DNA of 32,000 nucleotides from Nostoc sp. UHCC 0702 (GTDB lineage Bacteria > Cyanobacteriota > Cyanobacteriia > Cyanobacteriales > Nostocaceae), in assembly GCA_017164015.1 (NCBI GenBank), contig CP071065.1:3479918-3511917 (forward strand), read 5' to 3'. The position numbers and the translations under genes were made by a program. This document shows positions 1 to 22,896 of the stretch, in pieces. Every line of letters starts with the position of its first letter. The stretch's first letter is position 1. Under the pieces are notes generated by a model, which was not told the origin of the DNA, did no database searches, and saw only the letters and a list, made by a program, of their open reading frames with translations.

Positions 1-821
1 CCACTGGTATCTATTAATGCTTTTTGAGATAGGGCGATATCCTGAAAGTTTGTCACGCCCTCATAATTTAAATTCCACCCTTGACCATTAGCATTGAGAC
101 TGACTAAACCTCCTGCCACACTACCTAAATCAATGCGTCCGCCCTCAGCTTTTAGGGTTCCTCCTTCTGAGATAATCCCTCCTCCTACCAAGGCTAGGGT
201 ATTACCTGGTTTCACTTCCAGTCCGGTGGTGTTTCCTCTGGTGAAGGGTGAGAATATGGGACTCTCCAAACTGATGTTGTGTCCTTGACCTTGGAGGCGA
301 ATCGCTTGGGGATTCTGCCCAAATTGCAAGCCAATTGGCGCACTAATTGTTAATATAGGGGAAACTGAACTGTCAGTGGCGCTAAATTCTACACCATCAG
401 CAAATTTAAGGCTATTTGCCGTACTCGCCAAAAACGAGCCGCCAATATTAAGTTGAGCATTGGCACCAAAGTTAATGCCGCTGGGATTGATCAGAATGAA
501 ATTCGCACCGTAGTTATTTCTAATTAAGCCATCAATATTGGAAATTGACCCACCTGTCACTCGATTGATAATGTTAGTAATGTTGCTGCTGTTGTTGAAA
601 AAAGCCTCGCCATTGGTGGGAACAGAAAATTCTCGAAAGCTATGGAAAAGGTTGTTACCAACTTGTGCCCCTCCAGTAATTTCAAAGTTGTTGCCAGATT
701 GATTCACATTGCTAGGAAGGGTATTGTCTGGAGAAATTTGTGCCCGGGCTGGGGGGCTAGCTATTAGATAGCAGATAGTCGCAGTTATAGTAATTAAAAT
801 TTGGCCAGGGACTTGTTTCAT
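1..821 (-). CDS. Two-partner-secretion (TPS / haemagglutination-activity) domain exoprotein, N-terminal 273 codons; the ORF continues past the left edge
   Basis: Absent from the ORF track because there is no stop inside the window. Manual translation from the ATG (complement of 819-821) gives MKQVPGQILITITATICYLIASPPARAQISPDNTLPSNVNQSGNNFEITGGAQVGNNLFHSFREFSVPTNGEAFFNNSSNITNIINRVTGGSISNIDGLIRNNYGANFILINPSGINFGANAQLNIGGSFLAS... A signal peptide is followed by the NLFHSF..F and NPSGI.FG motifs that characterise FhaB/ShlA-type TPS domains. Confidence 0.85.
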   Translation of the reverse strand, partial: MKQVPGQILITITATICYLIASPPARAQISPDNTLPSNVNQSGNNFEITGGAQVGNNLFHSFREFSVPTNGEAFFNNSSNITNIINRVTGGSISNIDGLIRNNYGANFILINPSGINFGANAQLNIGGSFLASTANSLKFADGVEFSATDSSVSPILTISAPIGLQFGQNPQAIRLQGQGHNISLESPIFSPFTRGNTTGLEVKPGNTLALVGGGIISEGGTLKAEGGRIDLGSVAGGLVSLNANGQGWNLNYEGVTNFQDIALSQKALIDTS

Positions 822-962: not shown

Positions 963-1481
963 ATGAAGAAGTGGCAGTCTTGGGTAAATATGGGGACAAT
1001 GCCAATATTAACTCTGGGTGCTGTAGCTGCACTCTCTATGCCCAGCAGAGCTAGCAACGTACAAGTCACCTGCAAGAATAACGCCAGTACTCCAACGGTA
1101 ATTCTGACTTTGGTCAAAGATGGAATTGCCAAAGATTACCCGATTTTGAACTTTATCCCGGAATATTTCTCAGCGACCGATGCTGTGCAGAACTGTCAGA
1201 ATGCAGCTAAAAGTTTGCAAGCTGCCTATGATACGGGTAGTTCTAAATATTTGACGACTGACAAGCTTGGGGATCAACCTGTTGTCTGTGCGATCGCCCG
1301 CAGGGGTATCGGTTGCAATCATTACAGCGCTCAGGTTTTATTCAGTTTTAAGTCAACTGATAACCCCTCCCAAGCTTTATACGAAATGTTGGGTAGCGAT
1401 TTTAAGCAAGCCCAACCTCATGATGTGCGGACTATTAGCCGTACTTATACGGATACCAAACCTTCTTGGTGGCCCTTTTAA
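963..1481 (+). CDS. COP23-domain protein (circadian oscillating polypeptide family), secreted
   Basis: The ORF track starts this ORF at 912 on a TTG. The ATG at 963 is preceded by AAGGAG (949-954). It has a signal peptide (..LSMPSRA/SN). The conserved Cys pattern and the stretch YLTTDKLGDQPVVCAIARRGIGCNHYSAQVLFSFKSTDNPSQALYEML resemble COP23 family proteins as I remember them. No HMM was run. Confidence 0.65.
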   Translation: MKKWQSWVNMGTMPILTLGAVAALSMPSRASNVQVTCKNNASTPTVILTLVKDGIAKDYPILNFIPEYFSATDAVQNCQNAAKSLQAAYDTGSSKYLTTDKLGDQPVVCAIARRGIGCNHYSAQVLFSFKSTDNPSQALYEMLGSDFKQAQPHDVRTISRTYTDTKPSWWPF

Positions 1482-1487: not shown

Positions 1488-4466
1488 TCACTTGAAACAA
1501 GCGTTCTTAGCTTGTGCAGCAGCCTGGTAATCGGGTTTGAACTTCAAGGCTTCATCAAAAGCCGCGATCGCTCTAGTAGTTTGACGGAATTTACAGAGGC
1601 TCAACCCTAAATAATACCAGGTTTCAGCTTTTTGATTATTAGTTAGTTCGGGACGATCTAAAAGACGGTAAAATTGAGCGATCGCTTGATCGTCTCGCTT
1701 TAAGCCTTGCAGGGCGATGCCTTTACCCCGCAAAGCCACAAAGTACTTAGGATTATATTTTAATGACTGCTCATAGGCTGCTAAAGCTGCTTGGTAGTCT
1801 TGTTTTTGCAATAACACCTTAGCTTGATAGCTAAAAGCAATGGCTAATTCTTTGGCATTGCCATTTTGAGGTTCAACTTTTAAAAGCTCAATTGCTTGAT
1901 TCACAGCACTCAACGCTGTGTCTGGCTGTTTGAATGTTAGTAGGGCTTCGGTTTTATTAATCCAGAATACAGGATCATTTGAGTTGAGCATAATCGCTTG
2001 ATCAAAAGCCGCGATCGCTTCATTATATTGTTTGAGATTGTATAGAGCTTCCCCTCGGCAATTCCACGCATAAACAGCTTCTGGGTTAATGATAGTTGCT
2101 GTGGTGCAAGATTGTAGCATTTGCTTGTAGTCTTTCATGCGAGCTAGTGCATAGCCCCGGTTAGTCCAAGATTGATAGTAGTTGCTATCGATTTTTAAAA
2201 TGTTGTTGTATTTTGCGATCGCCTGTTGATATTCTCCTTGGTACAATAGCTCATTGCCTCGTTTAAAAATTATTTCTATTTGTAACCATTTAAAGACACT
2301 GAACCCTAAGACCATCAAGCTAGAACCACAAACCATCAAGCCAGCTATTGCCAACAATACCCAAAATCGTTGAATTCCTCTAGATTCAGCTGGGGCTATG
2401 GTATTGCTGTAATTCCAAGTATTAGGTGATGGAATCGGATTGTTATATAGGGTTGTTTCTGCTAATGAGGGTTGAAGTATTTTATCTAATTCCTGCTCTA
2501 CCCAATTTAGATCGAATACCGATTGATAAATGCGGTTTCCCAATTTCAAAAAGTCTTTTTGTTGCATTATCAATCCTAAATGCAATAGTTCTGCCTGTTC
2601 TGCACTGTGATCAATTGCAACTTCCCCCTGTTGCCAAACTTGTTTGTACAATTCCAACAGTGATAACGGGTCACATTGCTGATTGTGAATAATATTTTCT
2701 CTGATTTGTTGTAAATATTCAGCAGCAACTTGAGTTTGCCAATTATTAATCAAGCGGGTTTGTACTAACTGTTGCACTGTTGCGGCTTCTTGACCTGCGG
2801 CAATCATCACTTCTGATTCTGCAAGCAATTGACAAAGCTTGTGGGCGAGAATCGTTTGCCCATCTGTCCAAAACAACACTTCTGCTAGCACGACTTCTGG
2901 ACAATTAGCTTTTTCATCTAACTTGAATAATTTGATGGTCTTGGGGCTAAACAGTCTTAATCTGGCTGATTCTTGCTCTATCCAATAGCGATCAAATACT
3001 GATTGGTAAATACGGTTTCCCAATTTCAACAAGTCTTTTTCTTGCACTACCAATCCTAAATGCAATAGTTCTGCCTGTTCTGGACTGTGATCAACTAAAA
3101 CTTCCCCTTGTTGCCAAACAAGCTTGTACAATTCCAAGAGTGATAACGGGTCACATTGCTGATTGTGAATAATATTTTCTCTGATTTGTTGTAAATGCTC
3201 AGCGGCTACTTGAGTTTGCCAATTATTAATCAAGTGGGTTTCTACTAGCTGTTGCACTGTTGCGGCTTCTTGACCTGCGGCAATCATCACTTCTGATTCT
3301 GCAAGCAATTGACAAAGCTTTTGGGTTAGTATTAGTTGTCTATCTGTCCAAGACAACACTTCTGCCAGTACAACTTCCGGAGAATCGGCTTTTTCATCTA
3401 ATTTGAATAATTTGATGGTGTTGGGGCTAAACAGTCGGAAATGGGATAATTCTAATTCTATCCAATTGAGGTCGAATACCGATTGGTAAATGCGGTTTCC
3501 CAATTTCAATAAGTCTTTTTGTGGCACTACCAATCCTAGATGCAATAGTTCTGCCTGTTCTGGACTGTGATCAACTAAAACTTCCCCTTGTTGCCAAACA
3601 AGCTTGTACAATTCCAACAGTAATAATGGGTCACATTGCTGATTGTGAATAATATTTTCTCTGATTTGTTGTAAATACTCAGCAGCCACTTGAGTTTGCC
3701 AATTATTAATCAAGCGGGTTTGTACTAGCTGTTGCACTGTTGCAGCTTCTTGACCTGCGGTAATCATCACTTCTGATTCTGCAAGCAATTGACAAAGCTT
3801 TTGGGTTAGTATCGGTTGCCCATCTGTCCAAAACAACACTTCTGCCAGCACATCTTCCGGACAATTAGCTTTTTCATCTAACTTGAATAATTTGATGGTG
3901 CTGCGGCTAAACAGTCTTAACTTGGAAGATTTATGCTCTACCAATTTGGGAGCTAAAACCGATTGCTCAATGGAGTTTAAGGTTTTCAAATTGTTCTGCT
4001 GTGGCACTATCATTCCCAGGTGTAATTGTTCTGACTGCACTAAACTTTCATCCGTTGAGGCTTTTTCTTGTTGCCAGATGTGCTGCAATTCATATGGCAA
4101 AGCAAGATGCTCCAAAAAAAATTTAATTGTAGTAGGTTTCAACCAACCTTTAAGTACAGCTAATTCCCCAAAGCGAAGATTTTTCTGGGATTGTTCAGCG
4201 AGGATAGTTTTAATTTGGTGTTCATTTAACAGCCCAGCTGCTTCTAAATATTTACCCAAGGGTTGTTTTGGTTTCTCCTTCAGTAGAACTGTCCACTGAT
4301 AAGAGAAAAAATCAGCCGTTTTTTGTTTTAGCCATCCATGAGAGGCTAGAATTTCACCGAACCGCAACCCCTGAACTAGTGTTTGCTCTTTGAGGGCAAT
4401 TTCTACCTGTTCAGATGAAATCAGGTCAGCTTGTTGTAAAACTTTACCAAGCGGCTTCATAAACAA
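1488..4466 (-). CDS. Multidomain membrane protein: two MshEN/GspE-N-like segments, three 160-aa repeats of an ATPase-derived winged-helix/helical module, one TM helix, and a C-terminal TPR region
   Basis: 992-aa ORF. The N-terminus carries PLGKVLQQADLISSEQVEIALKEQ-TLVQG-LRFGEIL.. and PLGKYLEAAGLLNEHQIKTILAEQ-SQKNL-RFGELAVLKGWL... Three near-identical units contain WTDGQPILTQKLCQLL ... EQAELLHLGLVV ... NRIYQSVFD. There is one TM segment (RFWVLLAIAGLMVCGSSLMVLGFSVF), followed by about seven TPR-like repeats (..YQGEYQQAIAKYNNILKIDSNYYQSW..). Confidence 0.85.
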   Translation of the reverse strand: MFMKPLGKVLQQADLISSEQVEIALKEQTLVQGLRFGEILASHGWLKQKTADFFSYQWTVLLKEKPKQPLGKYLEAAGLLNEHQIKTILAEQSQKNLRFGELAVLKGWLKPTTIKFFLEHLALPYELQHIWQQEKASTDESLVQSEQLHLGMIVPQQNNLKTLNSIEQSVLAPKLVEHKSSKLRLFSRSTIKLFKLDEKANCPEDVLAEVLFWTDGQPILTQKLCQLLAESEVMITAGQEAATVQQLVQTRLINNWQTQVAAEYLQQIRENIIHNQQCDPLLLLELYKLVWQQGEVLVDHSPEQAELLHLGLVVPQKDLLKLGNRIYQSVFDLNWIELELSHFRLFSPNTIKLFKLDEKADSPEVVLAEVLSWTDRQLILTQKLCQLLAESEVMIAAGQEAATVQQLVETHLINNWQTQVAAEHLQQIRENIIHNQQCDPLSLLELYKLVWQQGEVLVDHSPEQAELLHLGLVVQEKDLLKLGNRIYQSVFDRYWIEQESARLRLFSPKTIKLFKLDEKANCPEVVLAEVLFWTDGQTILAHKLCQLLAESEVMIAAGQEAATVQQLVQTRLINNWQTQVAAEYLQQIRENIIHNQQCDPLSLLELYKQVWQQGEVAIDHSAEQAELLHLGLIMQQKDFLKLGNRIYQSVFDLNWVEQELDKILQPSLAETTLYNNPIPSPNTWNYSNTIAPAESRGIQRFWVLLAIAGLMVCGSSLMVLGFSVFKWLQIEIIFKRGNELLYQGEYQQAIAKYNNILKIDSNYYQSWTNRGYALARMKDYKQMLQSCTTATIINPEAVYAWNCRGEALYNLKQYNEAIAAFDQAIMLNSNDPVFWINKTEALLTFKQPDTALSAVNQAIELLKVEPQNGNAKELAIAFSYQAKVLLQKQDYQAALAAYEQSLKYNPKYFVALRGKGIALQGLKRDDQAIAQFYRLLDRPELTNNQKAETWYYLGLSLCKFRQTTRAIAAFDEALKFKPDYQAAAQAKNACFK
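2490..4040. repeat. Tandem 480-bp coding repeat, three full copies plus a degenerate partial fourth
   Basis: The string gattg[ag]taaat[ag]cggtttcccaatttcaa begins at 2521, 3001 and 3481, an exact 480-bp period. Positions 3061-3120 and 3541-3600 are identical at 60 of 60 bases. Confidence 0.9.
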
Positions 4467-4740: not shown

Positions 4741-4961
4741 AATTTAATGGGGATCAGGGTTAGGGGGTCTAAGGGTAAATCCTTGATCTTACTGGCGTTT
4801 TCGGTCAAAACCCTGTTTCGTTCTGCCTTTGGTTAATACAAGTTACATTCAGGCTTCAGGTTATCGATGGTACTCTAGTCAAATCTCAATAATAATCAAC
4901 AAAAATAATAAGTATAATTAGCTACTAAATCTATCTTTCAACTTGTGTTGGCGACAACTTG

Positions 4962-7900
4962 ATGCTGGAACTTTGGAAAGTCCTTCTTGCTTATAAACAG
5001 TTTGTGCCCCACGGTCATTGCTATCTTTGGAAACCAGATTTAGTAGGGCTGCATATCGTATCCGACTTTTTAATTGCACTTGCTTATTATTCAATTCCTG
5101 TGACGCTACTTTATTTTGTTCGCAAGCGACAAGATTTGCCATTCAACTGGATATTTCTACTGTTTGCTACATTTATTGTCACTTGTGGTACCACTCACCT
5201 GATGGAAATTTGGACGCTGTGGTATCCTACCTATTGGTTAAGTGGTTGTATCAAAGCTATTACAGCTTTAGTATCAGTGTATACGGGTATTACGTTGATA
5301 CAGTTGATACCAAAAATCCTTGCTTTGCCTAGTTCTGCACAATTGGAGGCAGCCAACCAAGAACTGGAGCGGGAAATCAAGGAACGTAAACGAGCAGAAG
5401 AAGCTTTGCGCCATAGCAAACAACGCTGGCAGTTAGCCATAGCAGGTACTAATGAGGCGATTTGGGATTGGGATATATCTACTAATGAAACCTTCCGGTC
5501 TGAGCGTTGGTTCAAAATGTTGGGATACGATCGCCACGAACTCGGCAATAGTGATGAAGAGTGGGGCAAACGCATTCATCCTGATGATTATGAACGGGTA
5601 AATGCTGCTCAAACAGCTTATCTACTGCGACAAGCCCTAGATTATAACACAGAATATCGGCTTTTGTGCAAGGATGGTAATTACCGATGGTTTAGATCGC
5701 GGGCAAAAGCTGTTTGGGATGAGCAAGGAAATCCAGTGCGATTGGTTGGTTCCCTAGGAGACGTGAGCGATCGCAAACAGGCAGAACTGGCACTACAAGA
5801 GCGAGAAGCCATGTTGCGGCGGATTGGGGATAATCTGCCCAATGGCGCAGTTTATCAAGTGATCCGCGAATTGGATGGGAGCGATCGCTTTTCCTATATG
5901 AGTGCGGGAATTGAAAGACTAACGCAAGTCAAAGCAGAAGATGCACTACTAGATGCGAGTTTGCTGTATCGCCAGTTTATCCCAGAGGATGTGCCACGCC
6001 TGGAAGCAGCAGTTGAGCAATCCCGACAAAACCTGTCAATATTTGATATCCAACTGCGAATCCAAACGCCCAGTGGTCAGTTGAAATGGTTTCATTTTCG
6101 TTCTACGCCACGCCGCTTGGAAGATAATCGCGTGGTTTGGGATGGGCTGGTGGTGGATGTCACCGCCCTCAAACTTACAGAATCAAGGCTACGCAAGAGT
6201 AAAGCCTTGTTAGAAGAATCTCAGCAAGTCGCCCGTGTTGGTAATTGGGAATTTGATCTTGCTAGTCAAAAAATTACTTGGTCGAAGCAACTTTTCCAGC
6301 TTTTTAACAGAGATCCAGAGCAATCAGAACCGACTTATCAGGAAAATCTACAACTGTATTACCCAGAAGATGCCGGAAAATTAGCCCAAGCCGTGGAACG
6401 GGCAATTTCAACAGGCGAATCCTACAAACTGATTTTGCGTGTGTCTCAACCTGACGGGTCTGTTATGTATACCGAGGGCATTGGACATGCTGAATTGAAC
6501 GCCGATGGCAAAGTGATTCGCCTTTATGGCACCGCCCAAGATGTTACTGAACGCCAAGCCGCACTCAATGAACTGCAAGAGGCCCAAGAAAAACTGCGTC
6601 GCAGTGAAACCCTACTAGCTACCGCTCAAAAGATTGCTCATATGGGTAGTTGGGAATGGAACTTAATCGAGCAAAAGCAAATTTGGTCAACGGAAACTTT
6701 CCGCATCTTTGGGCTAAATCCCGCGAAATCAGCACCGACACAGGCGGAATTTATGCAGCTGGTTCACCCAGACGATCGCCCAGCCTTACAGACTCATTTT
6801 GTCACAGCGATCGCTCAAGGAACTCCTTTCAATGTTGAGTATCACATTGTGCGACCAGATAATTCATTGCGGTATCTTGAGTCCAGAGCAGAGGTAGCTT
6901 ATGATACTCAAGGGCAAACAATTAGGTTATATGGAGCCATTCTAGATATTACAGAACGTAAACAAACCGAGTTAGAAATTACCAAGAGCCGCGACTTGCT
7001 AGAAGCTGTCTATAACGAATCTGCTGATGCGCTGTTTTTGGTAGATATAGAATCAGGACTGACAACAGACTGTAACAATCGGGCAGTGGAACTATTCGCA
7101 GCCTCTAGCAAAGCCGAACTGATTGGGATTGTCGGTCAGACTCTGCAAAAGGTGCAGTTTACCGATGATGAGCTAACCAGCATCACAGAAGAAGTTAAGC
7201 ACCAAGGTGTGTGGAGTCGAGAAATTGAATACGTCACCAAGCAGGGCAATTGCTTTTGGGGAAACATCGCAGTTAAACAAATTCAGGTTGTCGATCAATT
7301 GATGAATTTGGTGCGGGTTACGGATATCAGCGTCCGCAAGCGTGCCGAAGCAGAACGCCAACAAGTAGAAGCAGCCTTAGCTAAAAGTGAAGAACAACTC
7401 AGGCTAACGCTGGAATTTAACCAAATCGGTATTTGGGATTGGGATGTGCAAACGGGAGCAGTAATTTGGAACGACAATCACTTCCGCTTGCTAGGGTTAG
7501 AACCAGAAAACAAAGCAGTGAAATATCAACTATGGCGCGATGCTGTTCATCCAGAGGATATCGACCGAGTTGAACAAATGATTACCAACGCGCTGACTAA
7601 GCATACCAGTTATGATGCAGAATATCGAGTGATTCATCCTGATGGCAAAGTGCGCTGGCTGACTGGCAAAGGACGCAGTATTTACAACCAAGCAGGTAAA
7701 CCTGTACGCATGTTGGGTGTGTTGATTGATGTTAGCGATCGCGCTTTTGCAGAAGAAGCCTTGCGTTCAAGTGAAGCTCGATTCCAAGCATTTATGGACA
7801 ACAGCCCAGTACTAGCTTGGATCACTGATGCTAATGGACATGTACTTTACTTAAACCAAACTTACCTACGTACATTTAAATTACTACCAGACCGGGTGAT

Positions 7901-9524
7901 TGGGCAATCCATCTTTGACCTCTACCCGACTGAAATTGCTCAGCAGCATTTCGATAACATTCAAACAGTCATACAGACAAATCAGGTACTTGAGGTGATT
8001 GAGGTCGCTCCCCGACCAGATGATACCCTGGGTGAGTTCTTAGTATACAAATTCCCTATTCCCGGATTGTCTGCACAAAAGTTAGTCGGTAGGGTGGCGA
8101 TTGACATTACAGAACGCAAGACTCTGGAGCGAGAACTGGCTCACAAGCAACAGTTATTGGATGCGTTTATTACCAGCGCCCCTGTGGGGATGACTGTCCT
8201 CGATGAACAACTGCGTTACTCGTTGATTAATGAAGCATTAGCAGAAATTAATGGCATTCCCGCAAAGGCACATATTGGCAAGACCCAGTGGGAGATTGTC
8301 CCAGATCTCGCACCAAAGCAACAAGAGGTTTTGCGCCATGTTTTGACCACAGGTGAACCAATATTGGATTTTGAAATTAGCGGAGAAACTACAAAACTTC
8401 CCGGTGTGATGCGGACTTGGCTAGCTTCCTACTTTCCGATTCGCTCTGTTGAGGCTAAACCTGTGGGAGTTGGCATTGTGGTGTTGGAAATTAGCGATCG
8501 CAAACGCGCTGAACGCATGTTAGAACTGCAAGCAGTCATTACCCGTAATATGGCGGAGGGAATTTGTTTGGTTAGTGCTACTAATGACATGATTGTCTAC
8601 GCCAACCCCAAATTCGAGCAAATGTTTGGCTACGCTCCTGATGAGCTAATAGGGCAAGATGTGTCAATTCTCAACTATGGAGATGAAAATATTTCTCCTC
8701 AAGAGGTGAGTCAGACAATTAGAACTGCTGTCCTCCAACAGGGTGAAGCTACCTATGAAGTCCACAATGTGAAAAAAGATGGCACTCCCTTCTGGAGTAG
8801 CGCCACCACATGTGTTTTTGATCATCCTGAATATGGAAAAGTGCTTGTGGCTGTCCAACAAGATATCACCGAACAAAAACAAGCAGAAGAACAAATTAAA
8901 GCATCTCTCAAAGAAAAAGAAGTATTACTTAAAGAAATTCATCATCGCGTCAAAAACAACTTAGGAATTGTCAGCAGCTTATTGCAAATGCAGTGCAGAC
9001 GTATAAAAGATGCTCAAGCCACGGCAATTCTCCGTGATAGCCAAAACCGCATTGCCTCGATTTCCTTGGTTCATGAAAAACTCTACCGCTCTGAAGATTT
9101 AGCCAATATCGATTTTGCTCAATACATTCCAGATTTAACCACTCATTTATTTGATTCTTACAATGTTAGCTCTAACCAAATCAAGCTGAATATTCAAGTT
9201 GACGGTGCGAGTTTGGACATTGAAACCGCCATTCCTTGCGGTTTGATTATCAATGAACTAGTTTCCAATGCTTTGAAATACGCCTTTGTTGATGGTCGTG
9301 CAGGTGAAATACTGGTGAAGTTTTATCAATCAAGCGATCGCTCTTTAACGCTGATTGTTCGAGACAATGGCATTGGTCTACCTGGGGACTTTGATAGCAA
9401 AAAAGCTAAAACACTAGGTATCAGTCTGATCCAAGGATTAATCAAGCAGTTAAGGGGAAGCCTTGAGATTAACTGCCAGCAAGGAACAGAATTTAAAATT
9501 AATCTTCAAAAAGGCAAAGGATGA
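4962..9524 (+). CDS. Sensor histidine kinase: ETR1-like ethylene-binding membrane domain, about nine PAS/PAC domains, HisKA_2 and HATPase
   Basis: 1520-aa ORF (TTG at 4959, ATG at 4962). The N-terminus reads VSDFLIALAYYSIPVTLLYFVRKRQDLPFNWIFLLFATFIVTCGTTHLMEIWTLW, which matches the ethylene-receptor helices I-II including the Cys/His pair. PAS cores recur (WDWDISTNE.., WEFDLASQK.., WEWNLIEQK.., WDWDVQTGA.. and others). The H-box is EIHHRVKNNLGIVSSLLQMQ, the N-box is NELVSNALKYAF, and there are VRDNGIGLP and TLGISLIQ. Confidence 0.9.
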   Translation: MLELWKVLLAYKQFVPHGHCYLWKPDLVGLHIVSDFLIALAYYSIPVTLLYFVRKRQDLPFNWIFLLFATFIVTCGTTHLMEIWTLWYPTYWLSGCIKAITALVSVYTGITLIQLIPKILALPSSAQLEAANQELEREIKERKRAEEALRHSKQRWQLAIAGTNEAIWDWDISTNETFRSERWFKMLGYDRHELGNSDEEWGKRIHPDDYERVNAAQTAYLLRQALDYNTEYRLLCKDGNYRWFRSRAKAVWDEQGNPVRLVGSLGDVSDRKQAELALQEREAMLRRIGDNLPNGAVYQVIRELDGSDRFSYMSAGIERLTQVKAEDALLDASLLYRQFIPEDVPRLEAAVEQSRQNLSIFDIQLRIQTPSGQLKWFHFRSTPRRLEDNRVVWDGLVVDVTALKLTESRLRKSKALLEESQQVARVGNWEFDLASQKITWSKQLFQLFNRDPEQSEPTYQENLQLYYPEDAGKLAQAVERAISTGESYKLILRVSQPDGSVMYTEGIGHAELNADGKVIRLYGTAQDVTERQAALNELQEAQEKLRRSETLLATAQKIAHMGSWEWNLIEQKQIWSTETFRIFGLNPAKSAPTQAEFMQLVHPDDRPALQTHFVTAIAQGTPFNVEYHIVRPDNSLRYLESRAEVAYDTQGQTIRLYGAILDITERKQTELEITKSRDLLEAVYNESADALFLVDIESGLTTDCNNRAVELFAASSKAELIGIVGQTLQKVQFTDDELTSITEEVKHQGVWSREIEYVTKQGNCFWGNIAVKQIQVVDQLMNLVRVTDISVRKRAEAERQQVEAALAKSEEQLRLTLEFNQIGIWDWDVQTGAVIWNDNHFRLLGLEPENKAVKYQLWRDAVHPEDIDRVEQMITNALTKHTSYDAEYRVIHPDGKVRWLTGKGRSIYNQAGKPVRMLGVLIDVSDRAFAEEALRSSEARFQAFMDNSPVLAWITDANGHVLYLNQTYLRTFKLLPDRVIGQSIFDLYPTEIAQQHFDNIQTVIQTNQVLEVIEVAPRPDDTLGEFLVYKFPIPGLSAQKLVGRVAIDITERKTLERELAHKQQLLDAFITSAPVGMTVLDEQLRYSLINEALAEINGIPAKAHIGKTQWEIVPDLAPKQQEVLRHVLTTGEPILDFEISGETTKLPGVMRTWLASYFPIRSVEAKPVGVGIVVLEISDRKRAERMLELQAVITRNMAEGICLVSATNDMIVYANPKFEQMFGYAPDELIGQDVSILNYGDENISPQEVSQTIRTAVLQQGEATYEVHNVKKDGTPFWSSATTCVFDHPEYGKVLVAVQQDITEQKQAEEQIKASLKEKEVLLKEIHHRVKNNLGIVSSLLQMQCRRIKDAQATAILRDSQNRIASISLVHEKLYRSEDLANIDFAQYIPDLTTHLFDSYNVSSNQIKLNIQVDGASLDIETAIPCGLIINELVSNALKYAFVDGRAGEILVKFYQSSDRSLTLIVRDNGIGLPGDFDSKKAKTLGISLIQGLIKQLRGSLEINCQQGTEFKINLQKGKG

Positions 9525-11197
9525 CCACCATGAATATTTTATCACAGACACAGACAACAAAAACAATTAAAATTTTGATTGTTGAAGATGAGTTTATCCT
9601 TGCGGTCAATTTACAAGAAAGTTTAGAATCCCTTGGCTACTCTAGTATAGAAATTGTAGATACCGCAGAAGGGGCAATTGAGAAAGCAACTGAACTGCGT
9701 CCCAACTTGATTTTGATGGATATCCGGTTGCGGGGCGATATGGACGGTATCCAAGCCGCAGAACAAATCTGGAATCGTCTGCAAATTCCCATCATTTACG
9801 TCACCGGACACTCTGACAAAAGTACTGTAGAGCGGGCAACGCTGACATCACCTTTTGGTTACATCCTCAAACCTGTCAGAGAACAAGAACTCTACGTTGC
9901 CATTCAAACCACACTCACTCGCTACGAACGCGAGCAATTTTTGAGTAGTGTGCTTCGAGGAATGGGGGATGGGGTAATTGTCATAGATCCGCAGTTGCGT
10001 ATCAAGTTCCTAAATCCGGCAGCTGAAGCCCTCACAGGGTGGCGACATGATGAAGCAAAGAACCGCATGTTAGATCAGGTGATGAAACTCGTTGACGAAC
10101 AAACTCTGCTACCCGCAAACAATCCCCTGATATCAGCTTTAGTACAACAAACCACTGTATATCTAGGCAATCGTGTTTTATTGATCAACAGAAACGGCAC
10201 AACCATTCCTGTAGCTGATAGTGCTACTCCCTTGAGAAACCACGACGGTGAAATTACTGGTGCTGTGATGGTTTTTCGGGATGACACCCAACGCAGGTTA
10301 ATAGAAGAACGCAATCTGGCGGCAGAACATGCCCAACAACTAGAAATTCAAATGGCGGAACTTCAACGCCTCAACCAATTGAAAGAGGACTTTTTGAGAG
10401 CTACTTCTCATGAAATGCGAACGCCTTTATCAAATATCAAAATGGCAATTACTGTGCTGGAAACTATTCTCAATCAGCAGAGTATTTTGCCACCTGAGCC
10501 ACCTGATGCATCTTCATCGGTATCGCTTTACCTAAACATCTTACGTAATGAGTGTGAACGAGAGTTAGACTTAGTAGACGATTTGCTGAATATGCGATTT
10601 ATTGATGCAGGTGTTTATCCACTAGAATTAACTGCAATTCATCTGCAATTTTGGCTACCTCACATCACTGAAAGTTTTCAACAACGCCTAGAAGCTCGAC
10701 GGCAAACTTTAGAGGTTAGCGTTGATCTAGATTTACCACCTATAGTCACAGATTTGGCAATTTTGACTCGCGTCATCTCAGAATTACTCAACAATGCTTG
10801 CAAATACACACCGTCTGGGGAACAGATTACAGTCATAGCTAAACTCGCCTCGACTACAAACAGTCAAATTGATGTATCTCCTGATGCTCAAACTTCACGC
10901 GTGCAAATTACCATTAGTAATTCTGGGGTAGAAATCCCCATAAAAGAACAAACTCGCATCTTTGACTTGTTTTACCGGATTCCTGAAAGCACTATTAAAG
11001 AACAAAATCTGATTTTAGAGTTGTTTGACGAGATTGCTATAGGCAAACCAGGACAAAGTAATAGTGTAGGATTAGGGTTAGCCTTGGTGAAAAAGCTAGT
11101 GCAATATCTCCAAGGTGCGATCGCACTTAGTAGCAGTCAAGGTTGGACAAGATTCACAGTTGAGTTGCCATTAACTTTGGTGGACATTGACCATTGA
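9521..11197 (+). CDS. Hybrid kinase: N-terminal receiver (REC), PAS, HisKA and HATPase
   Basis: 558-aa ORF whose ATG overlaps the upstream stop (ATGA at 9521-9524). REC: KILIVEDEFILA..LILMDIRL..KP. PAS: LRGMGDGVIVIDPQLRIKFLNPAAEALTGW. H-box: SHEMRTPLSNI. N-box: ELLNNACKYTP. G2: GLGLALVKKLV. Confidence 0.9.
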   Translation: MTTMNILSQTQTTKTIKILIVEDEFILAVNLQESLESLGYSSIEIVDTAEGAIEKATELRPNLILMDIRLRGDMDGIQAAEQIWNRLQIPIIYVTGHSDKSTVERATLTSPFGYILKPVREQELYVAIQTTLTRYEREQFLSSVLRGMGDGVIVIDPQLRIKFLNPAAEALTGWRHDEAKNRMLDQVMKLVDEQTLLPANNPLISALVQQTTVYLGNRVLLINRNGTTIPVADSATPLRNHDGEITGAVMVFRDDTQRRLIEERNLAAEHAQQLEIQMAELQRLNQLKEDFLRATSHEMRTPLSNIKMAITVLETILNQQSILPPEPPDASSSVSLYLNILRNECERELDLVDDLLNMRFIDAGVYPLELTAIHLQFWLPHITESFQQRLEARRQTLEVSVDLDLPPIVTDLAILTRVISELLNNACKYTPSGEQITVIAKLASTTNSQIDVSPDAQTSRVQITISNSGVEIPIKEQTRIFDLFYRIPESTIKEQNLILELFDEIAIGKPGQSNSVGLGLALVKKLVQYLQGAIALSSSQGWTRFTVELPLTLVDIDH

Positions 11198-11250
11198 CCA
11201 TTGACCATTGACCATTGACCATTGACCATTGACCATTGACCATTGACCAT
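11185..11250. repeat. STRR heptamer array (CATTGAC, about 9.4 copies) between two convergent genes
   Basis: Read directly. The TGA stop of the hybrid kinase (11195-11197) lies inside the array, and the aroE stop follows immediately at 11251. Confidence 0.95.
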
Positions 11251-12132
11251 TCACTCTAAACCTAAATGATTTAGCAATGCTTGGCGCATCACCTCTTCAG
11301 GCACAGTTTGTTGCTGCAACCAGATTTTGAGGGCTGCTACTCCTTGCTGTACTAGCATTTCTAAGCCATCAATGGCAATTGCACCTTGTTTTTGGGCAAG
11401 TTGCAGAAATTGCGTTGGTTTAGGGACATATATTAAATCATAGGCGATCGCACCATCAGGCAAATTCTTAATTTCCTCTGCACTCAAAGGTGACTCGTCC
11501 ACTTTGGGATACATCCCAATAGGAGTTGTATTTACCAGCAAATTCGCATGGGTAATCAAATTTGGGAGATTGTTCCATGTATGAACTTGCAAATTCATAG
11601 CTATGGGTGAATTGTCCCAACTACGGCGAAATTCTTCTAACTTTTGCAAATTGCGCCCCACAACATGAATTTGTGCGAAACCAAGTTGGTGACAACCTGC
11701 TACAACAGCCCTAGCTGCACCACCATTACCTAAAATCACCGCTACCTTCTGACTCCAATCTTGTTGATATGTTGTTTGCAAAGGAGCGATAAATCCTTCT
11801 ATATCTGTGTTTGTACCTACCCATTGATGATTTTGGCGGCTGACAGTATTAACTGCGCCTATAGCTTGGGCGATGGGAGTAATTTCTGATAACAACGGCA
11901 TAATTGCCTGTTTGTGAGGAATTGTCACGCTAAAGCCCACAACCCCAACAGCAGCAAAACCTGCGATCGCAACTTCTAAATTTTCTGGTTCTATAGGAAA
12001 AGGAAGATAAACATAATCTAAACCCAATTGAGCGATCGCAGCATTATGCATCACCGGCGACAGCGAATGTTCTACCGGATGTCCAATAACGCCTAGCAGT
12101 TTACTTTTACCTGTAATTAATACTTTAGTCAT
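11251..12132 (-). CDS. aroE: Shikimate 5-dehydrogenase
   Basis: 293-aa ORF with LLGVIGHPVEHSLSPVMHNAA, SVTIPHKQ, NTD and the ILGNGGAARAV Rossmann motif typical of AroE. Confidence 0.9.
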   Translation of the reverse strand: MTKVLITGKSKLLGVIGHPVEHSLSPVMHNAAIAQLGLDYVYLPFPIEPENLEVAIAGFAAVGVVGFSVTIPHKQAIMPLLSEITPIAQAIGAVNTVSRQNHQWVGTNTDIEGFIAPLQTTYQQDWSQKVAVILGNGGAARAVVAGCHQLGFAQIHVVGRNLQKLEEFRRSWDNSPIAMNLQVHTWNNLPNLITHANLLVNTTPIGMYPKVDESPLSAEEIKNLPDGAIAYDLIYVPKPTQFLQLAQKQGAIAIDGLEMLVQQGVAALKIWLQQQTVPEEVMRQALLNHLGLE

Positions 12133-12247
12133 TTGTCAGTTGTCAGTTGTCAGTTGTCATTTGTCATTTGTCAGTAATTATTTTCTTTCCCTCCCCTGTT
12201 CCCCTGCTCCCCTGCTCCCCTGCTCCCCTGCTCCCCCGCCCCTCACC
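12133..12247. repeat. Composite STRR cassette: (TTGTCAG/TTGTCAT) x6 abutting the aroE start codon, a spacer, then (CCCCTGCT) x about 5
   Basis: Read directly. It has the same composition and order as the cassette at 22383-22578. Confidence 0.9.
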
Positions 12248-14785: not shown

Positions 14786-14857
14786 GGTAATAGGTAATAG
14801 GTAATGGGTAATAGGTAATACTCAAAACCAATTACCAATTACCAATTCCCAATTACC
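14786..14857. repeat. Inverted pair of heptamer arrays, (GGTAATA) x5 then (CCAATTA) x4
   Basis: Read directly. The arms are complementary at 6 of every 7 positions, which gives a long imperfect hairpin. Confidence 0.85.
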
Positions 14858-15360: not shown

Positions 15361-15753
15361 AAAATTTACAGGATTCAAATTGGTTAACTTGTAATTCAGG
15401 AGTTTTACAGCTAAGGTGGACATAACAACTAGCAAACTCAGCATTTTCTGTTTTTCCGCTTTGGGATTTGGCTTAGCCTTGTATACTTCCCTTTTCTATA
15501 TATACTTGGCTTTTTACCACTTAACTATTGTTATGCTGAAACTTGCTTGGGCTGCTGACGGGAGACACCTTGTCATTTGCCCGTTTACTTTGGTTGTGGT
15601 TTGTTTGGTGTCCTACTATTTAAGTTATCACTCAATTGGTAATTATCAAACCTCAGTTTACTAAACTTGACGTTTTGTAGAACTTTGCAATATATAGGAC
15701 TCATATTTGATTTTTTAACAAAACTTAGTACACCTTTATTCCTTCTTCCCAGT

Positions 15754-15846
15754 CCCCAGCGATGCACTGAGCTTGTCGAAGTGTCCCCAGCGATGCACTG
15801 AGCTTGTCGAAGTGTCCCCAGCGATGCACTGAGCTTGTCGAAGTGT
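15754..15846. repeat. 31-bp unit ccccagcgatgcactgagcttgtcgaagtgt in three exact tandem copies, embedded in CCCCAGT heptamers
   Basis: Units start at 15754, 15785 and 15816. A further copy lies inside the S8 peptidase ORF at 21642-21672. Confidence 0.9.
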
Positions 15847-15880
15847 CCCCAGTCCCCAGCTATATCATCACCTCCTGAGA

Positions 15881-17428
15881 CTAGTAAAGTGCCGTCGCGG
15901 CTAATGGCAATTTTTCTAATGCTTTAATTTCGCTGCTTTTGGCTTGAGTTTCGCTTTTGTTGGCTTGGTGATAGAGAATGAAAGTTCCTATGCCCAATGC
16001 CATAGAAACCAGCAACCCGATACATACTGCAACTAAAAGATATCTTTGGAATTTAGCAGTTTGTTTTTCTTGTGCTAGTAGTGCTTCTACTTCTTTAACC
16101 CGTGCTGCCTCTAATGCCGTTTGCACTTCGCGCTGTTCGCATTGTTGACTAGCGGCTAAAAATTGATAATCCAAATTGCTGAGACTTTTGCCCTGGGCCC
16201 AGTTTTGAGTATCTTTAAGGGCTTTTCCTCGCAACAGACGCGATTCGTCTTCATAGCCTGATGCTACCCATGCATTGAATGTTTGCGAGTAAGGGCGGAG
16301 ATTATCTAACTGCCTGATTACCCATTCAGCATTGAAAACACTTTCATAGATGGGATTTTTAATTTTGAGATAGCCGTTGTATTTCTCGACTAAACCAGAT
16401 AACAATAGTTCTGTCTGTTCTCGACTATCATCAGTGGGTACACCAGATGTCTGATTTGACTGTGCTTGCAGTATTTGTTGATAAAGTCCTAGCAGGTGTC
16501 CGGCTCGGTGTTCGTGGAAAAGTAGGCGATCTCTGATGGTGCGGAGGTGTTCGGGTTCATCTTGAGATTCCCAATGTAGGATAATGCGGGACTTCACCAA
16601 TTGCTCTATCCAAAACCCCTCAGCACCAGGGGGTATGGTAATCATTTCCGTAGAACTTTCTAGGGCAACCCGCACAACTAATTGGCAGAGTTTCTGTGTG
16701 AGAAACGGTTGTCCTCCTGTCCAGCGCATAATTTCTTGCAAGATTGCTCTGGGTTGGCTGATGATTTGCTCTAAGCCTTTGAGCAGGGGCGTGGCTTCAT
16801 GGAGTTGAAAGCCATATAATTCAATGGCTTGTCCGATATTAAACGGTGTTCTGAGTTTATCAGTTATTAAATCAGATGGACTGACTACGCCAAATAGTGC
16901 AAAACCCAGACGGCTGAAATCTGAGTTATATGCCTGCTGGTTATAGCAATGACGAATCCAAGCAAAAAAGTCGTTGACGGGAAAGTTTAAACTTAGTAAG
17001 CTATCTATCTCATCAATAAAGATGAATATGCGATCGCTCTCTAGTTCTTTTAGTAATACCTGTTCCACGAATTGATGCAATCGTTGCACAGGGGCAAGTT
17101 CTGCTTGTTGCTCCCACCATTGTTTAAAGTTGACTCGCTCCTCTAAGTTGAACTCATAAAACAAACTGACAATAATACCTTTGTACCATTGCACAGGTGT
17201 AGTTGACTCACTGCCCAATCGCGTCACATCTATGTAAACACAGGCATAGCCTTCTTTTTCTAGGCGATGCCTGGTTCGTTGTAGTAGGGATGACTTGCCC
17301 ATCTGGCGGCTGTTTAAGACGTAACAAAAATTCCCGCCTTTTAGCTCAGCATAAAGTTGTTCGTCTGCTTGACGGACGACGTAATTAGGATCATCACCTC
17401 CAAGACTGCCGCCAACTTGATATCTCAT
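15881..17428 (-). CDS. AAA-like / STAND-type P-loop ATPase with a C-terminal coiled coil and a single TM anchor
   Basis: 515-aa ORF with YQVGGSL...YVVRQADEQLY, Walker A NSRQMGKSSL, Walker B IFIFIDEIDS, RTPFNIG and WTGGQPFLTQKLCQLV. The C-terminal hydrophobic segment is YLLVAVCIGLLVSMALGIGTFILY. Confidence 0.85.
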   Translation of the reverse strand: MRYQVGGSLGGDDPNYVVRQADEQLYAELKGGNFCYVLNSRQMGKSSLLQRTRHRLEKEGYACVYIDVTRLGSESTTPVQWYKGIIVSLFYEFNLEERVNFKQWWEQQAELAPVQRLHQFVEQVLLKELESDRIFIFIDEIDSLLSLNFPVNDFFAWIRHCYNQQAYNSDFSRLGFALFGVVSPSDLITDKLRTPFNIGQAIELYGFQLHEATPLLKGLEQIISQPRAILQEIMRWTGGQPFLTQKLCQLVVRVALESSTEMITIPPGAEGFWIEQLVKSRIILHWESQDEPEHLRTIRDRLLFHEHRAGHLLGLYQQILQAQSNQTSGVPTDDSREQTELLLSGLVEKYNGYLKIKNPIYESVFNAEWVIRQLDNLRPYSQTFNAWVASGYEDESRLLRGKALKDTQNWAQGKSLSNLDYQFLAASQQCEQREVQTALEAARVKEVEALLAQEKQTAKFQRYLLVAVCIGLLVSMALGIGTFILYHQANKSETQAKSSEIKALEKLPLAATALY

Positions 17429-17876: not shown

Positions 17877-17924
17877 TTAACTGTCTTAACTGTCTTAACT
17901 GTCTTAACTGTCTTAACTGTCTTA
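17877..17924. repeat. Nonamer tandem repeat (TTAACTGTC, about 5 copies)
   Basis: Read directly. It generates the spurious CLNCLN and RQLRQL ORFs on the two strands. Confidence 0.9.
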
Positions 17925-18265: not shown

Positions 18266-19690
18266 TTAATGGCTATCCATCGATAATTGTTTTGCAAAAT
18301 AAACACGGTAAAGTTGGCACCGTGGTTTGATGCGATCGCCTTCATAGGCTATCAATCCCAGGCTATCGAGCTGATAAACCTGAATGGGATCAAGATAGAT
18401 ACTTTGTTTTGTTGTTACAACCTGAGTGTATGCTTCCAACAAGCTGGGGTTTTCTTGCAGCTGTGTCCAGTATCGCCATAGATGCTGTCGATAGATCCCA
18501 CCGTTAGCGCTCGCTTCTTGTAAGAGTTCTTCTAAGGTCATACCTTGACAAGTGAGATAATACAGAGCAATCCGAATCAGTGCTGGATGTCCACCCACGA
18601 GAGACATCAATTTGCTCGCCTCTTTACGAGACTTCCATTTCAGTTCGTGCTGACGAGCTAATTCTTCTACCTGTTGGAGAGTAAAATCGCTCAGACGCAA
18701 TGGTAATCCAATGTTGAACGGAGAGCGGTTGATATCGAAAGTCAAATGAACTTCTGTAGAGTAAACAATCACTAGCCTGAGTTTCTGCCAGTTACTATCT
18801 TGATGTCCTTCCTCATGCCACGATCGCAACAAAGGAAAAAACTCTTGAGCAATTTGGGGATATTCAAAAAAGCGGTCAACTCGCTCTAACACAACGACTA
18901 TTGGACGTTGGATTTGTTTGAGTAAGTAATTTTTCAAGTAGAAACTACAGCTGAACTTACTGCCAATTTCTTCATCCCAGTAGGCATCTAGTTGGGGATC
19001 AATGCCTAATTCTGTAGCTAGTCGCCAGCAAAAACTACGGAAAAATTGGTCTAAATTACTCAGACAGAAGGCATCGATTTGGTGGCAATCTAATTTGATC
19101 GTGTAATATTCCTGTTGGTGGGCAAAAGCTAACAGCCGCAGCACCAGAGAGCTTTTACCCATTTCTCTGGGAGCATGAATGCGAATCACAGAACCTGGTT
19201 GAGTTATTTCCTGATAGACAAGCTCCTCAATGGGTGGACGTTTGATATAAAGGGGAGAATCTAGGGGAACAGGGCCATCTGGGTATGAGCAATAAAACTC
19301 CAAATTTCTGGGCTGTTGTCTACTCAAAGAGCTTTTAACTATTGATGTCAACGGATATATCGGTTTGTCGTGGGAGTCCAAACTTGAATACAAGGCTTGA
19401 GCGGTTTGATTGTCTTCTACAGTCTCAATGCTATAGTCTTCTTCAGATAATTCCAGACCAAAAGCGTTAAAGCATAGTTTGAGCGTTCGCCGATCCACAC
19501 TTACACTCGAATACCATAACCGATTCAAGGTTTTTGTGGATATGTTCATGCGATCGCTTAACTCGTCTAAGCTGAAGCGATGGCCCTTGTTCTGCTTGAT
19601 CTCTACAGCCCGAATTGCCCTCTGTAAGCGCTTCAGACCCACAGAAGTTAACAAAACTCCCCGTTTACGCGTGGTTTTTGCTTGTTTCAT
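18266..19690 (-). CDS. HTH-fused AAA-like ATPase (AAA_35-type) with a deviant Walker B
   Basis: The ORF is open to 19894 (542 aa), but the ATG at 19690 has AGGTGA 4 nt upstream and starts at MKQAKTTRKRGVLLTSVGLKRLQ. It carries the HTH-like segment FSLDELSDRMNISTKTLNRLW, then DSPLYIKRPPIEE, Walker A HAPREMGKSSL, Walker B position VVVLERVD, RSPFNIG and VGGHPALI. Confidence 0.8.
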   Translation of the reverse strand: MKQAKTTRKRGVLLTSVGLKRLQRAIRAVEIKQNKGHRFSLDELSDRMNISTKTLNRLWYSSVSVDRRTLKLCFNAFGLELSEEDYSIETVEDNQTAQALYSSLDSHDKPIYPLTSIVKSSLSRQQPRNLEFYCSYPDGPVPLDSPLYIKRPPIEELVYQEITQPGSVIRIHAPREMGKSSLVLRLLAFAHQQEYYTIKLDCHQIDAFCLSNLDQFFRSFCWRLATELGIDPQLDAYWDEEIGSKFSCSFYLKNYLLKQIQRPIVVVLERVDRFFEYPQIAQEFFPLLRSWHEEGHQDSNWQKLRLVIVYSTEVHLTFDINRSPFNIGLPLRLSDFTLQQVEELARQHELKWKSRKEASKLMSLVGGHPALIRIALYYLTCQGMTLEELLQEASANGGIYRQHLWRYWTQLQENPSLLEAYTQVVTTKQSIYLDPIQVYQLDSLGLIAYEGDRIKPRCQLYRVYFAKQLSMDSH

Positions 19691-20120
19691 CTCGTCACCT
19701 AATTTAACTGAGGACACCTTTGACTTTTTGTCTCTGGAGCTATCCCGATCGCCAATTACGCCAAATATGGGATTACCTTGGTTATTTGGTAACAATGCAC
19801 TAGAGCAAAGCTTTTCCATTATGCTGGTGTATTTTTTGTTAGCGCTTTTGTTAACGATACATTTTAAAATACATTCTGGAGCTTGATCAAGCAAGGCTTA
19901 TTCAGTAATATTACGGTTTTTTTAATAATTCAAAATAAATTTTCCTACTTTTCTTACTTTTCTTACTTCAGTAGGCAGAGGAACACACCTTTAGGACTGG
20001 GAACTGAGAACTGGGAATATCTAAACTGCGAAGACTAAATTTGTGCATTAGCTTGACTCTTGTGGAATGGGCGTCTCGCCCGTCCGTTATTGGCGGGCCG
20101 GACAGCCCTTGTCACGCTAC

Positions 20121-20161
20121 TGTCAGATCCCCGACTTCTTCAAGAAGTCGGGGATCTGACA
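20121..20161. repeat. Perfect 41-nt palindrome (19-bp stem, 3-nt loop) 16 nt downstream of the S8 peptidase stop
   Basis: tgtcagatccccgacttct-tca-agaagtcggggatctgaca. No U tract follows on either strand. Confidence 0.85.
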
Positions 20162-20176
20162 ATAGCCTCCGCGCCT

Positions 20177-22363: not shown

Positions 22364-22382
22364 AAATTTTGACTCTACTTTT

Positions 22383-22578
22383 AGTTGTTAGTTGTCAGTT
22401 GTTAGTTGTCAGTGGTCAGTTGTTAGTTGTTAGTTGTCAGTTGTCAGTTGTCAGTTGTTAGTTGTTAGTTGTTAGTTGTCAGTTGTCAGTTGTCAGTTGT
22501 TAGTTGTCAGTTGTTAATACTCTCACCTTTCCCCCCCTGCTCCCCTGCTCCCCTGCTCCCCTGCTCCCCTGCTCCCCC
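22383..22578. repeat. Composite STRR cassette: (TTGTCAG/TTGTTAG) x about 19, a spacer, then (CCCCTGCT) x about 6
   Basis: Read directly. It fills almost the entire 224-nt gap between the small secreted-protein gene and the S8 gene. Confidence 0.9.
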
Positions 22579-22587
22579 GCTACCTAC

Positions 22588-22896
22588 TCAGCTTCCCCAA
22601 TCAACGTAAATGCAGCCCATTGCAGAGGTTGAGGATATGTCTGCATTGTCGCTATGGTCGCCCAAAACCCACGGCTTACTTACCTTGTGTGATTTGAATT
22701 GCCTCTCCTCTGCAAAGTAATCAATAAAACTCCCTGACACAGCAGAATTTTGGTTTATTTGATTATTCGCTGTTTGTGCCGACACCTGTGGTAGCGAGAA
22801 AAGTACTGAAAAATTCTGCGGCAATGTTGGTACAAATGTAGCCAGAAAAGCACTCAAAGCAATTACAATCATTTTGCGAAAACGCATAGTTATCAT
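22588..22896 (-). CDS. Small secreted protein of unknown function
   Basis: The ORF track starts this ORF at a TTG (22926) that overlaps the CHAT gene. The ATGs at 22896 and 22887 give MITMRFRKMIVIALSAFLATFVPTLPQNFSVLFSLPQVSA/QT, which is a signal peptide. It begins 17 nt after the CHAT stop. Confidence 0.55.
   Translation of the reverse strand: MITMRFRKMIVIALSAFLATFVPTLPQNFSVLFSLPQVSAQTANNQINQNSAVSGSFIDYFAEERQFKSHKVSKPWVLGDHSDNADISSTSAMGCIYVDWGS

Follow-up and report, generated by a model that had tools for sequence, protein, structure and literature searches.

We analyzed a 32,000-nucleotide stretch of the genome of the cyanobacterium Nostoc sp. UHCC 0702 (contig CP071065.1; hereafter the window) and found that one of its genes encodes a protein of 992 amino acids (aa) carrying three tandem copies of the module that follows the P-loop in AAA_35 ATPases, with no nucleoside triphosphatase (NTPase) domain of its own. 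The array is preceded by two motif pairs of the MshEN type, which are candidate cyclic di-GMP (c-di-GMP) sites, and is followed by a single predicted transmembrane (TM) helix and a tetratricopeptide repeat (TPR) domain. We propose, tentatively and with somewhat less than even confidence, that the protein detects cytoplasmic c-di-GMP and passes a signal through the membrane to a cluster of envelope proteins encoded beside it.

The open reading frame (ORF) occupies positions 1488–4466 of the minus strand, comprises 992 codons counted from a TTG, and is the second-largest ORF in the window. Translation probably begins at the ATG at 4460 (MKPLGK...), two codons after the TTG, which matches the starts of the orthologues. 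Tandem Repeats Finder reported a single array in the ORF, at 2489–3972, with a period of 480, 3.1 copies, 88% matches and 0% indels. An earlier reading of this DNA from its letters alone (the original prediction) had described an exact 480-bp period, and this was borne out: the 29-nt pattern GATTGRTAAATRCGGTTTCCCAATTTCAA begins exactly at 2521, 3001 and 3481, with 0 occurrences expected from shuffled sequences, and positions 3061–3120 and 3541–3600 agree at 60 of 60 bases, as it had stated. On the minus strand the array resolves into unit 1 (aa 181–340; 3447–3926), unit 2 (aa 341–500; 2967–3446) and unit 3 (aa 501–660; 2487–2966). The degenerate partial copy that had also been described ahead of the full ones was recovered at aa 128–178 (3933–4085, minus strand); by profile matching it corresponds to unit positions 108–158, the wing and the C-terminal helices, with independent E-values (i-E) of 1e-8 to 5e-12. 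It is predicted to be disordered or is modeled with low confidence, the predicted local distance difference test score (pLDDT) lying below 50 over aa 123–194 of the full-length model.

The three full units are 88.5–91.5% identical in nucleotides and 84–88% identical in amino acids, and the copies differ at 41–55 of 480 positions. The near identity at the DNA level that had been claimed for the array does not hold, as identity is confined to patches. The longest identical runs between unit pairs measure 78, 72 and 50 nt, and those of 78 and 72 nt are longer than would be expected if the differences were scattered evenly (P about 0.02 and 0.005, respectively).

Each unit aligns colinearly with residues ~200–381 of a 515-aa AAA_35 ATPase encoded in the same window (15881–17428, minus strand), with BLASTP E-values of 7e-25, 4e-24 and 2e-22 at 32–37% identity, which upholds the homology put forward in the original prediction. 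BLASTP and profile matches place the homologous module of this ATPase at aa 219–372 (16313–16774, minus strand), after the Walker A/B domain and with a TM helix ~90 residues further on. The Pfam family AAA_35 (PF14516) covers residues 11–285 of the 515-aa protein, and its full model matches a second ATPase of the window, of 542 aa, at 1e-144. The same family was matched by 37 of 59 isolated units (best E 1.4e-7), and hhalign placed positions 29–153 of the unit profile on residues 428–535 of the 542-aa canonical AAA_35 protein, which form the end of the AAA_35 model, at E 0.0025.

An AlphaFold2 model of the unit, computed from an alignment of 59 diverse units, reached a pLDDT of 93 and a predicted TM-score (pTM) of 0.86. 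It consists, in order, of five helices, a winged helix built as helix–strand–helix–hairpin, and two short helices. A Foldseek search of this model against the PDB returned nothing at E <= 0.001, and the weak top matches were RuvB, the archaeal Walker ATPases 2qen and 2fna, the NB-ARC/NACHT regions of plant and animal NLR proteins, and winged-helix regulators. The assignment as lid plus winged helix therefore leans mainly on the sequence homology to AAA_35. Neither of the two ATPases (515 and 542 aa) nor the unit profile had a significant sequence match in the PDB, and PADLOC matched neither the 992-aa protein nor the ATPases to any defence-system model. Taken together, BLASTP, Pfam, hhalign and the predicted fold, which ends in a winged helix, support the view that the repeat unit is a helical lid plus winged helix, the C-terminal, post-P-loop part of an AAA_35 (STAND/ORC-like) ATPase; this is the identity that had been suggested for it. 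Pfam found no NTPase domain in the 992-aa ORF, again as claimed, and the P-loop that characterizes AAA_35 and STAND proteins is absent from it.

A profile search of 1.84 billion cluster representatives retrieved 5625 proteins with the module at E <= 1e-3, 1645 of them at E <= 1e-30. We examined the top 150 representatives, a sample biased toward multi-copy proteins. A GK[ST][ST] P-loop lies upstream of the first module in 97, and 63 of these 97 carry 2–6 modules; another 23 have an MshEN N-terminus, and the remaining 30 have neither, although some of these are fragments. Since arrays after P-loops are common, module arrays are a general feature of this AAA_35 subfamily, of which the P-loop-less version is one branch. 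Three metagenomic AAA_35 ATPases (P0089, P0121 and P0122; 1310–1550 aa) carry five or six modules at a spacing of about 220 aa (the module plus about 70 residues), compared with 160 aa for the window unit.

The GxP motif of STAND NTPases contacts the nucleotide. The corresponding motif, WTGGQPFLTQKLC, was invariant in all 26 examined modules that adjoin a P-loop. Of 197 orphan units, 93 (47%) retain G36, 146 (74%) P38 and 185 Q37, and W33, T34 and L40 are essentially invariant. In the 992-aa protein, the GxP (GGQP) position with which the lid begins reads G-Q-P in unit 1, the only window unit to keep it, R-Q-L in unit 2 and G-Q-T in unit 3. By analogy with the STAND NTPases, a relaxed GxP motif would fit a loss of nucleotide sensing with the fold retained. 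AAA_35 ATPases with WTGGQPFLTQKLC, such as the 515-aa protein, thus share the lid and winged helix with the 992-aa protein, placed there after a P-loop, and have arrays of 2–6 modules and C-terminal TM helices; the 992-aa protein differs from them in having no P-loop NTPase, a GxP motif that is not invariant, and MshEN at the N-terminal position. The 515-aa ATPase itself is tail-anchored, with its TM helix at aa 464–482 and about 30 residues beyond, and a coiled-coil-like stretch lies between its module and the TM helix.

The N-terminal region of the 992-aa protein had been described as MshEN-like, and NCBIfam agrees: NF053729 (‘c-di-GMP-binding domain, MshE-related’) matches at 69.2 bits, against a cut-off of 38, over two stretches. 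MshEN domains are defined by two tandem 24-residue motifs, [RKPN]hGxxhhxx[GAS]hhxxxxhxxxhxx[QNKRYWST], separated by a 5-residue spacer, an arrangement common to the receptors Vibrio cholerae MshE and Thermus thermophilus PilF (PMC5013675). Judged from the sequence, this arrangement appears twice in the 992-aa protein. The first stretch of the match gives motif pair 1 (aa 3–57; 4296–4460, minus strand), which has two 24-residue motifs around the spacer TLVQG, aligns weakly with the PilF c-di-GMP domains 6f8l and 8pfa, and shows many invariant columns among 20 orthologues. Motif pair 2 (aa 68–122; 4101–4265, minus strand) has, as read by eye, two 24-residue motifs around the spacer SQKNL; it is colinear with residues 7–65 of V. 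cholerae MshE (5htl) and also aligns weakly with the PilF domains. The MshEN region is the most constrained part of the protein, with a ratio of nonsynonymous to synonymous substitution (omega) of 0.09–0.22. In MshE and PilB the MshEN domain precedes a secretion ATPase, whereas here it precedes ATPase-less modules, a TM helix and TPRs. c-di-GMP binding by the MshEN domains of Nostoc and Synechocystis has been reported as untested (PMC12448109).

Downstream of the array, a hydropathy scan and Pfam TPR matches agree with the TM helix and TPR region that had been placed at the C-terminus. The single TM helix, at about aa 700–724 (2295–2369, minus strand), gives a hydropathy peak of 2.27 at aa 703–721 and is a helix in the model; most, though not all, relatives checked by the same scan also have one TM helix. 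The TPR domain, at about aa 730–990 (1497–2279, minus strand), is predicted to be periplasmic. Pfam TPR_1 (4e-26) and TPR_2 (3.5e-25) match it as tandem TPRs in four stretches within aa 730–985, and it reaches a pLDDT of about 90 in the full-length model. That model contains folded domains without confident inter-domain or inter-unit packing (pTM 0.35) and carries no information on how the units are arranged; its low-confidence zones are aa 123–194, the inter-unit linkers and aa 666–724. We read the protein as a single-pass protein, probably of the inner membrane, whose three modules fold independently and follow one another like beads on a string. Variants elsewhere keep the cassette of MshEN, module and TM helix and end in an OmpA-like domain (P0095) or in other non-TPR sequence (P0090–92), which argues that the C-terminus is extracytoplasmic. 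Together with the cytoplasmic placement of MshEN, the OmpA-ended P0095 points to an N-in, C-out topology.

Homology searches returned about 90 cyanobacterial orthologues, labelled only ‘tetratricopeptide repeat protein’. We then surveyed 80 species-level loci in GTDB genomes with up to 10 kb of flank on each side, several of which end at contig ends. Three units are present in 30 loci, two in 8 and one in 42, and one metagenomic protein has four. Three-unit orthologues range from Nostoc to Hydrococcus and Pleurocapsa-like cyanobacteria at 46–85% identity. Synonymous divergence (dS) between the window's units is 0.22–0.30, with omega at 0.25–0.28. In the flanks dS is 0.31 against Nostoc sp. NIES-4103 and 0.55–0.77 against Aulosira and Calothrix, both of which have three units.

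These values do not agree with the claim in the original prediction that the module was triplicated very recently. The window's units are 84–88% identical among themselves and 75–84% identical to those of NIES-4103, the units of the CENA67 protein are 95% identical to each other, and no positional signal among units is left beyond the closest relatives. Because units within a protein are closer to each other than to their positional counterparts in other species, we conclude that an old array has undergone concerted evolution. The dS values and the patchy differences between copies, with their long identical runs, carry the same signature. The array is old and is kept similar by gene conversion and unequal crossing-over, and its copy number apparently drifts between one and three through unequal recombination.

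Several orthologous loci depart from the common arrangement. On Scytonema tolypothrichoides scaffold JXCA02000022.1, two paralogues (L017 and L054) lie ~15 kb apart: one has no MshEN, carries three units and adjoins a COP23–TPS–TpsB–CHAT block (TPS, two-partner secretion), and the other has MshEN and two units. In Brasilonema, 635-aa proteins with MshEN and two units end at the start of the TPRs, and a separate protein combines three units with TPRs. This suggests gene splitting or subfunctionalisation in this clade. In Nostoc carneum NIES-2107, a three-unit orthologue and the COP23–TPS–TpsB–CHAT block reside on a 554-kb plasmid (plasmid1; locus L033).

The gene neighborhood of the 992-aa gene is conserved and consists largely of exported proteins. 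In the window it adjoins a COP23 gene with a signal peptide (963–1481, plus strand; Pfam COP23 8.9e-16), beyond which lies the 5′ part of a gene for a TpsA-like TPS-domain exoprotein, also with a signal peptide (1–821, minus strand), which runs off the window and leads a conserved TPS–TpsB–TPR-CHAT block. Of the 80 loci, 64 have COP23 immediately next to the gene, 61 have TPS, 59 a ShlB/POTRA TpsB transporter and 55 TPR-CHAT, with all four found together in 51. The COP23, TPS, TpsB and CHAT proteins have N-termini that look by eye like signal peptides, and the CHAT proteins retain the caspase-type motifs HLATHG and LSACET. In some Nostoc species the envelope block is found on the opposite flank of the gene, in inverted orientation. 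What lies upstream differs among loci and may be a PAS kinase, a methyl-accepting chemotaxis protein, a response regulator–GGDEF–EAL protein or Amt. In the window, a divergent gene at 4959–9524 (plus strand) encodes a 1521-aa sensor kinase with an ETR1_N ethylene-receptor-like N-terminus, multiple PAS domains and HisKA_2; this neighbor is shared with NIES-4103 and absent from more distant orthologous loci.

On the topology proposed above, the 992-aa protein would be the sole cytoplasm-facing product of this conserved exported-protein cluster. In the function we tentatively favor, the two MshEN-type sites would detect the cytoplasmic c-di-GMP level, and the signal would pass via the TM helix to the periplasmic TPR domain. 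The TPR domain would in turn act on the TPS/TpsB/CHAT/COP23 system and control secretion or processing of the TPS exoprotein. The modules would serve as oligomerisation or docking elements and not as nucleotide-state sensors. MshEN sits where the P-loop sits in the [P-loop]-[module]n-TM relatives, and the 992-aa protein may therefore be seen as a c-di-GMP-controlled version of the same scaffold. Comparison of [P-loop]-[module]n-TM proteins, including the 515-aa ATPase, with [MshEN]-[module]n-TM-TPR proteins suggests that one nucleotide-binding input has been swapped for another. A further-reaching proposal, which we regard as doubtful though arguable, is that MshEN replaced the P-loop as the switch of a STAND-type lid/winged-helix array, giving a hitherto unrecognised class of transmembrane c-di-GMP receptors. 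In cyanobacteria of filamentous and colonial growth, these receptors would control from the cytoplasm both a periplasmic, caspase-like CHAT protease and a surface protein exported by two-partner secretion.

Several observations weigh against a c-di-GMP sensor acting on the envelope cluster. COP23 is encoded on the opposite strand, so the genes do not form one simple operon, and about a fifth of the loci are without the cluster, in part through contig ends. A Scytonema/Fischerella clade has no MshEN region, which means that c-di-GMP input is not universal in the family. The first motif of each MshEN pair opens with Pro, not Arg, which also sets the 992-aa protein apart from the MshE and PilF receptors, and, by our reading of the sequence, motif I of pair 1 departs from the relaxed consensus of PMC5013675 at two more residues. 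Topology and signal peptides were judged by hydropathy and by eye, and the proposed function draws on gene neighborhood and domain logic.

The inside-out signaling proposed here would work in the manner of LapD/LapG of Pseudomonas, in which a cytoplasmic c-di-GMP receptor with a membrane span and a periplasmic output acts beside a neighboring periplasmic cysteine protease and a large secreted surface protein. The likeness lies in the proposed logic only and is an analogy without homology. A LapD-type receptor combines HAMP and a degenerate GGDEF-EAL module in the cytoplasm with a periplasmic LapG-binding domain that lies between two TM helices. Pfam found no HAMP, GGDEF or EAL domain in the 992-aa protein, and the system further differs in having one TM helix instead of two, CHAT instead of a LapG-type protease, and a type Vb instead of a type I substrate.

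One alternative gives the P-loop-less modules a role in trans: as an adaptor, scaffold or decoy, they would dock on or poison AAA_35 ATPase oligomers such as those of the window's two ATPases. The adaptor, scaffold or decoy role is the one the original prediction had offered. Several features would suit it. The units are 32–37% identical to the module of the 515-aa ATPase, and orphan units strongly conserve the helix LTQKLCQL. A membrane anchor is common to the 992-aa protein and the 515-aa ATPase, and cyanobacterial conflict systems have been described as using inactive or decoy versions of cellular domains (PMC7159879). The genomic context gives this role no support, however. A tblastn search of the 80 orthologous loci, within the flanks of up to 10 kb, found an AAA_35 P-loop domain of either type in 0 of 80, and the partners found instead are COP23, TPS, TpsB and CHAT. 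Within the window, 11.4 kb separate the 992-aa gene from that of the 515-aa ATPase, with unrelated genes for two sensor kinases, a shikimate dehydrogenase and a hydrolase in between; the unit profile hidden Markov model misses the 542-aa ATPase, and the profile comparison with that protein is marginal. The neighbors and domain fusions indicate the cell envelope, and we consider an action in trans on AAA_35 ATPases unlikely. The iSTAND proteins of vWA-MoxR ternary systems (PMC7159879), the closest concept described so far, resemble the 992-aa protein in being non-catalytic STAND-type derivatives of multicellular cyanobacteria. They retain the fold of an NTPase, its motifs dead, and act together with MoxR-vWA (PMC7159879), whereas the 992-aa protein has no NTPase fold and multiplies the post-NTPase module; no MoxR or vWA genes were noted in the gene tables of five loci, the other loci not having been screened.

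A second alternative sees the array as a largely structural spacer whose length varies, or as what is left of an ATPase gene in decay, with only MshEN and the TPRs at work. The varying number of units, the decayed and disordered first copy, the relaxed GxP motif and a model without confident inter-unit packing would all be expected on this account. Against it stands the constraint on the units themselves. Every full unit is under purifying selection, with omega at 0.25–0.28 between units and 0.17–0.30 against orthologues, as in the TPR domain. W33, T34, L40, Y107, N144, Y147, F151 and W155 are invariant or nearly so, and at least one full unit is kept in every TPR-ended homologue of the protein set and at 80 of 80 loci. 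A passive spacer or remnant is improbable in the light of this pattern.

The winged helices might instead bind DNA, which would make the protein a membrane-tethered, c-di-GMP-responsive factor of the ToxR/CadC kind, or a nucleoid anchor, with several DNA-binding heads. The unit does end in a winged helix, the winged-helix domains of ORC/Cdc6-type AAA+ proteins bind DNA, and the weak structural matches include the DNA-binding domains of CRP/FNR, NtcA and MarR. These transcription-factor matches reach TM-scores of only 0.2–0.25 with E >1, and the winged helix of STAND and AAA+ proteins usually makes intramolecular or oligomer contacts. The units are acidic (pI 4.8–5.0, with 20–23 Asp plus Glu against 12–13 Lys plus Arg), and the putative recognition helix PEQAELLHLGL is without basic residues. 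We have down-weighted DNA binding because of this acidity, and it appears very unlikely.

Finally, it is barely credible that the three copies stem from an assembly artefact, or from an event that is very recent and confined to this strain, even though identical stretches between copies reach 78 nt and a 98%-identical database protein (P0006) is only 679 aa long. P0006 is encoded on an independent metagenome contig from an ENA assembly (L001). This contig is colinear with 3.2 kb of the window at 98.6% identity, interrupted by three small gaps, and has the 480-bp array in 3.1 copies; in the Nostoc sp. NIES-4103 genome, colinearity at 88% identity extends across the entire gene. Both are independent assemblies with three copies, three units also occur in 29 other species, and 41–55 differences per 480 positions suffice for assemblers to resolve the copies. 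As far as public assemblies go, an artefact is refuted. We had considered P0006 as a copy-number polymorphism or collapse and rejected it, since its DNA carries the full 3.1 copies; the P0006 ORF is short because of indels, not because of fewer repeat copies.

The window contains further features of separate interest. A minus-strand cluster at 18266–24379 encodes the 542-aa AAA_35 ATPase, which has a long N-terminal extension, together with a 728-aa S8 subtilase, a 112-aa ORF and a 488-aa CHAT protein. It looks like an ATPase–protease conflict or signaling cassette unrelated to the 992-aa gene. At 28985–32000 (plus strand), an ORF of more than 1005 aa with a signal-peptide-like start runs off the end of the window. 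It holds a 126-bp x 14.6 array (29238–31074, 86% matches) that encodes 42-aa TPR_12-type repeats, and its last part looks like the beginning of a CHAT domain. On the minus strand, the listed ORF at 29567–30532 is probably a spurious antisense frame. A perfect 31-bp x 3.3 direct repeat (GTCCCCAGCGATGCACTGAGCTTGTCGAAGT) at 15752–15852 directly follows the 515-aa ATPase gene, 3′ of its stop codon. Intergenic tandem arrays of heptamers, octamers and nonamers, for example CATTGAC x 9.6 and AGTTGTC x 19, occur at 11185–11251, 12128–12236, 14786–14857, 17877–17924 and 22383–22581. Short tandemly repeated sequences are typical of heterocystous cyanobacteria, and the window's intergenic arrays fit this pattern.

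Every domain type in the 992-aa protein is already known, as are the family, under the name ‘TPR protein’, and the MshE-related motif, in NCBIfam. The original prediction knew of no role for the architecture, and our literature searches likewise found no account of a lid/winged-helix array that lacks an NTPase, of such an array joined to MshEN, or of the COP23–TPS–TpsB–CHAT linkage. The analysis corrects the blanket annotation of these proteins as ‘tetratricopeptide repeat protein’. It shows a lid–winged-helix module that has evidently been kept, multiplied and selected without an NTPase, which allows a test of the role of this module beyond nucleotide sensing. Cyanobacteria have many c-di-GMP synthases and hydrolases and very few known receptors (PMC12448109, PMC10124867). 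With two well-conserved MshEN sites and at least 80 species loci in Nostocales, Pleurocapsales and relatives, the family is a concrete candidate for such a receptor, and the adjacent COP23/TPS/TpsB/CHAT envelope cluster offers a direct experimental read-out.

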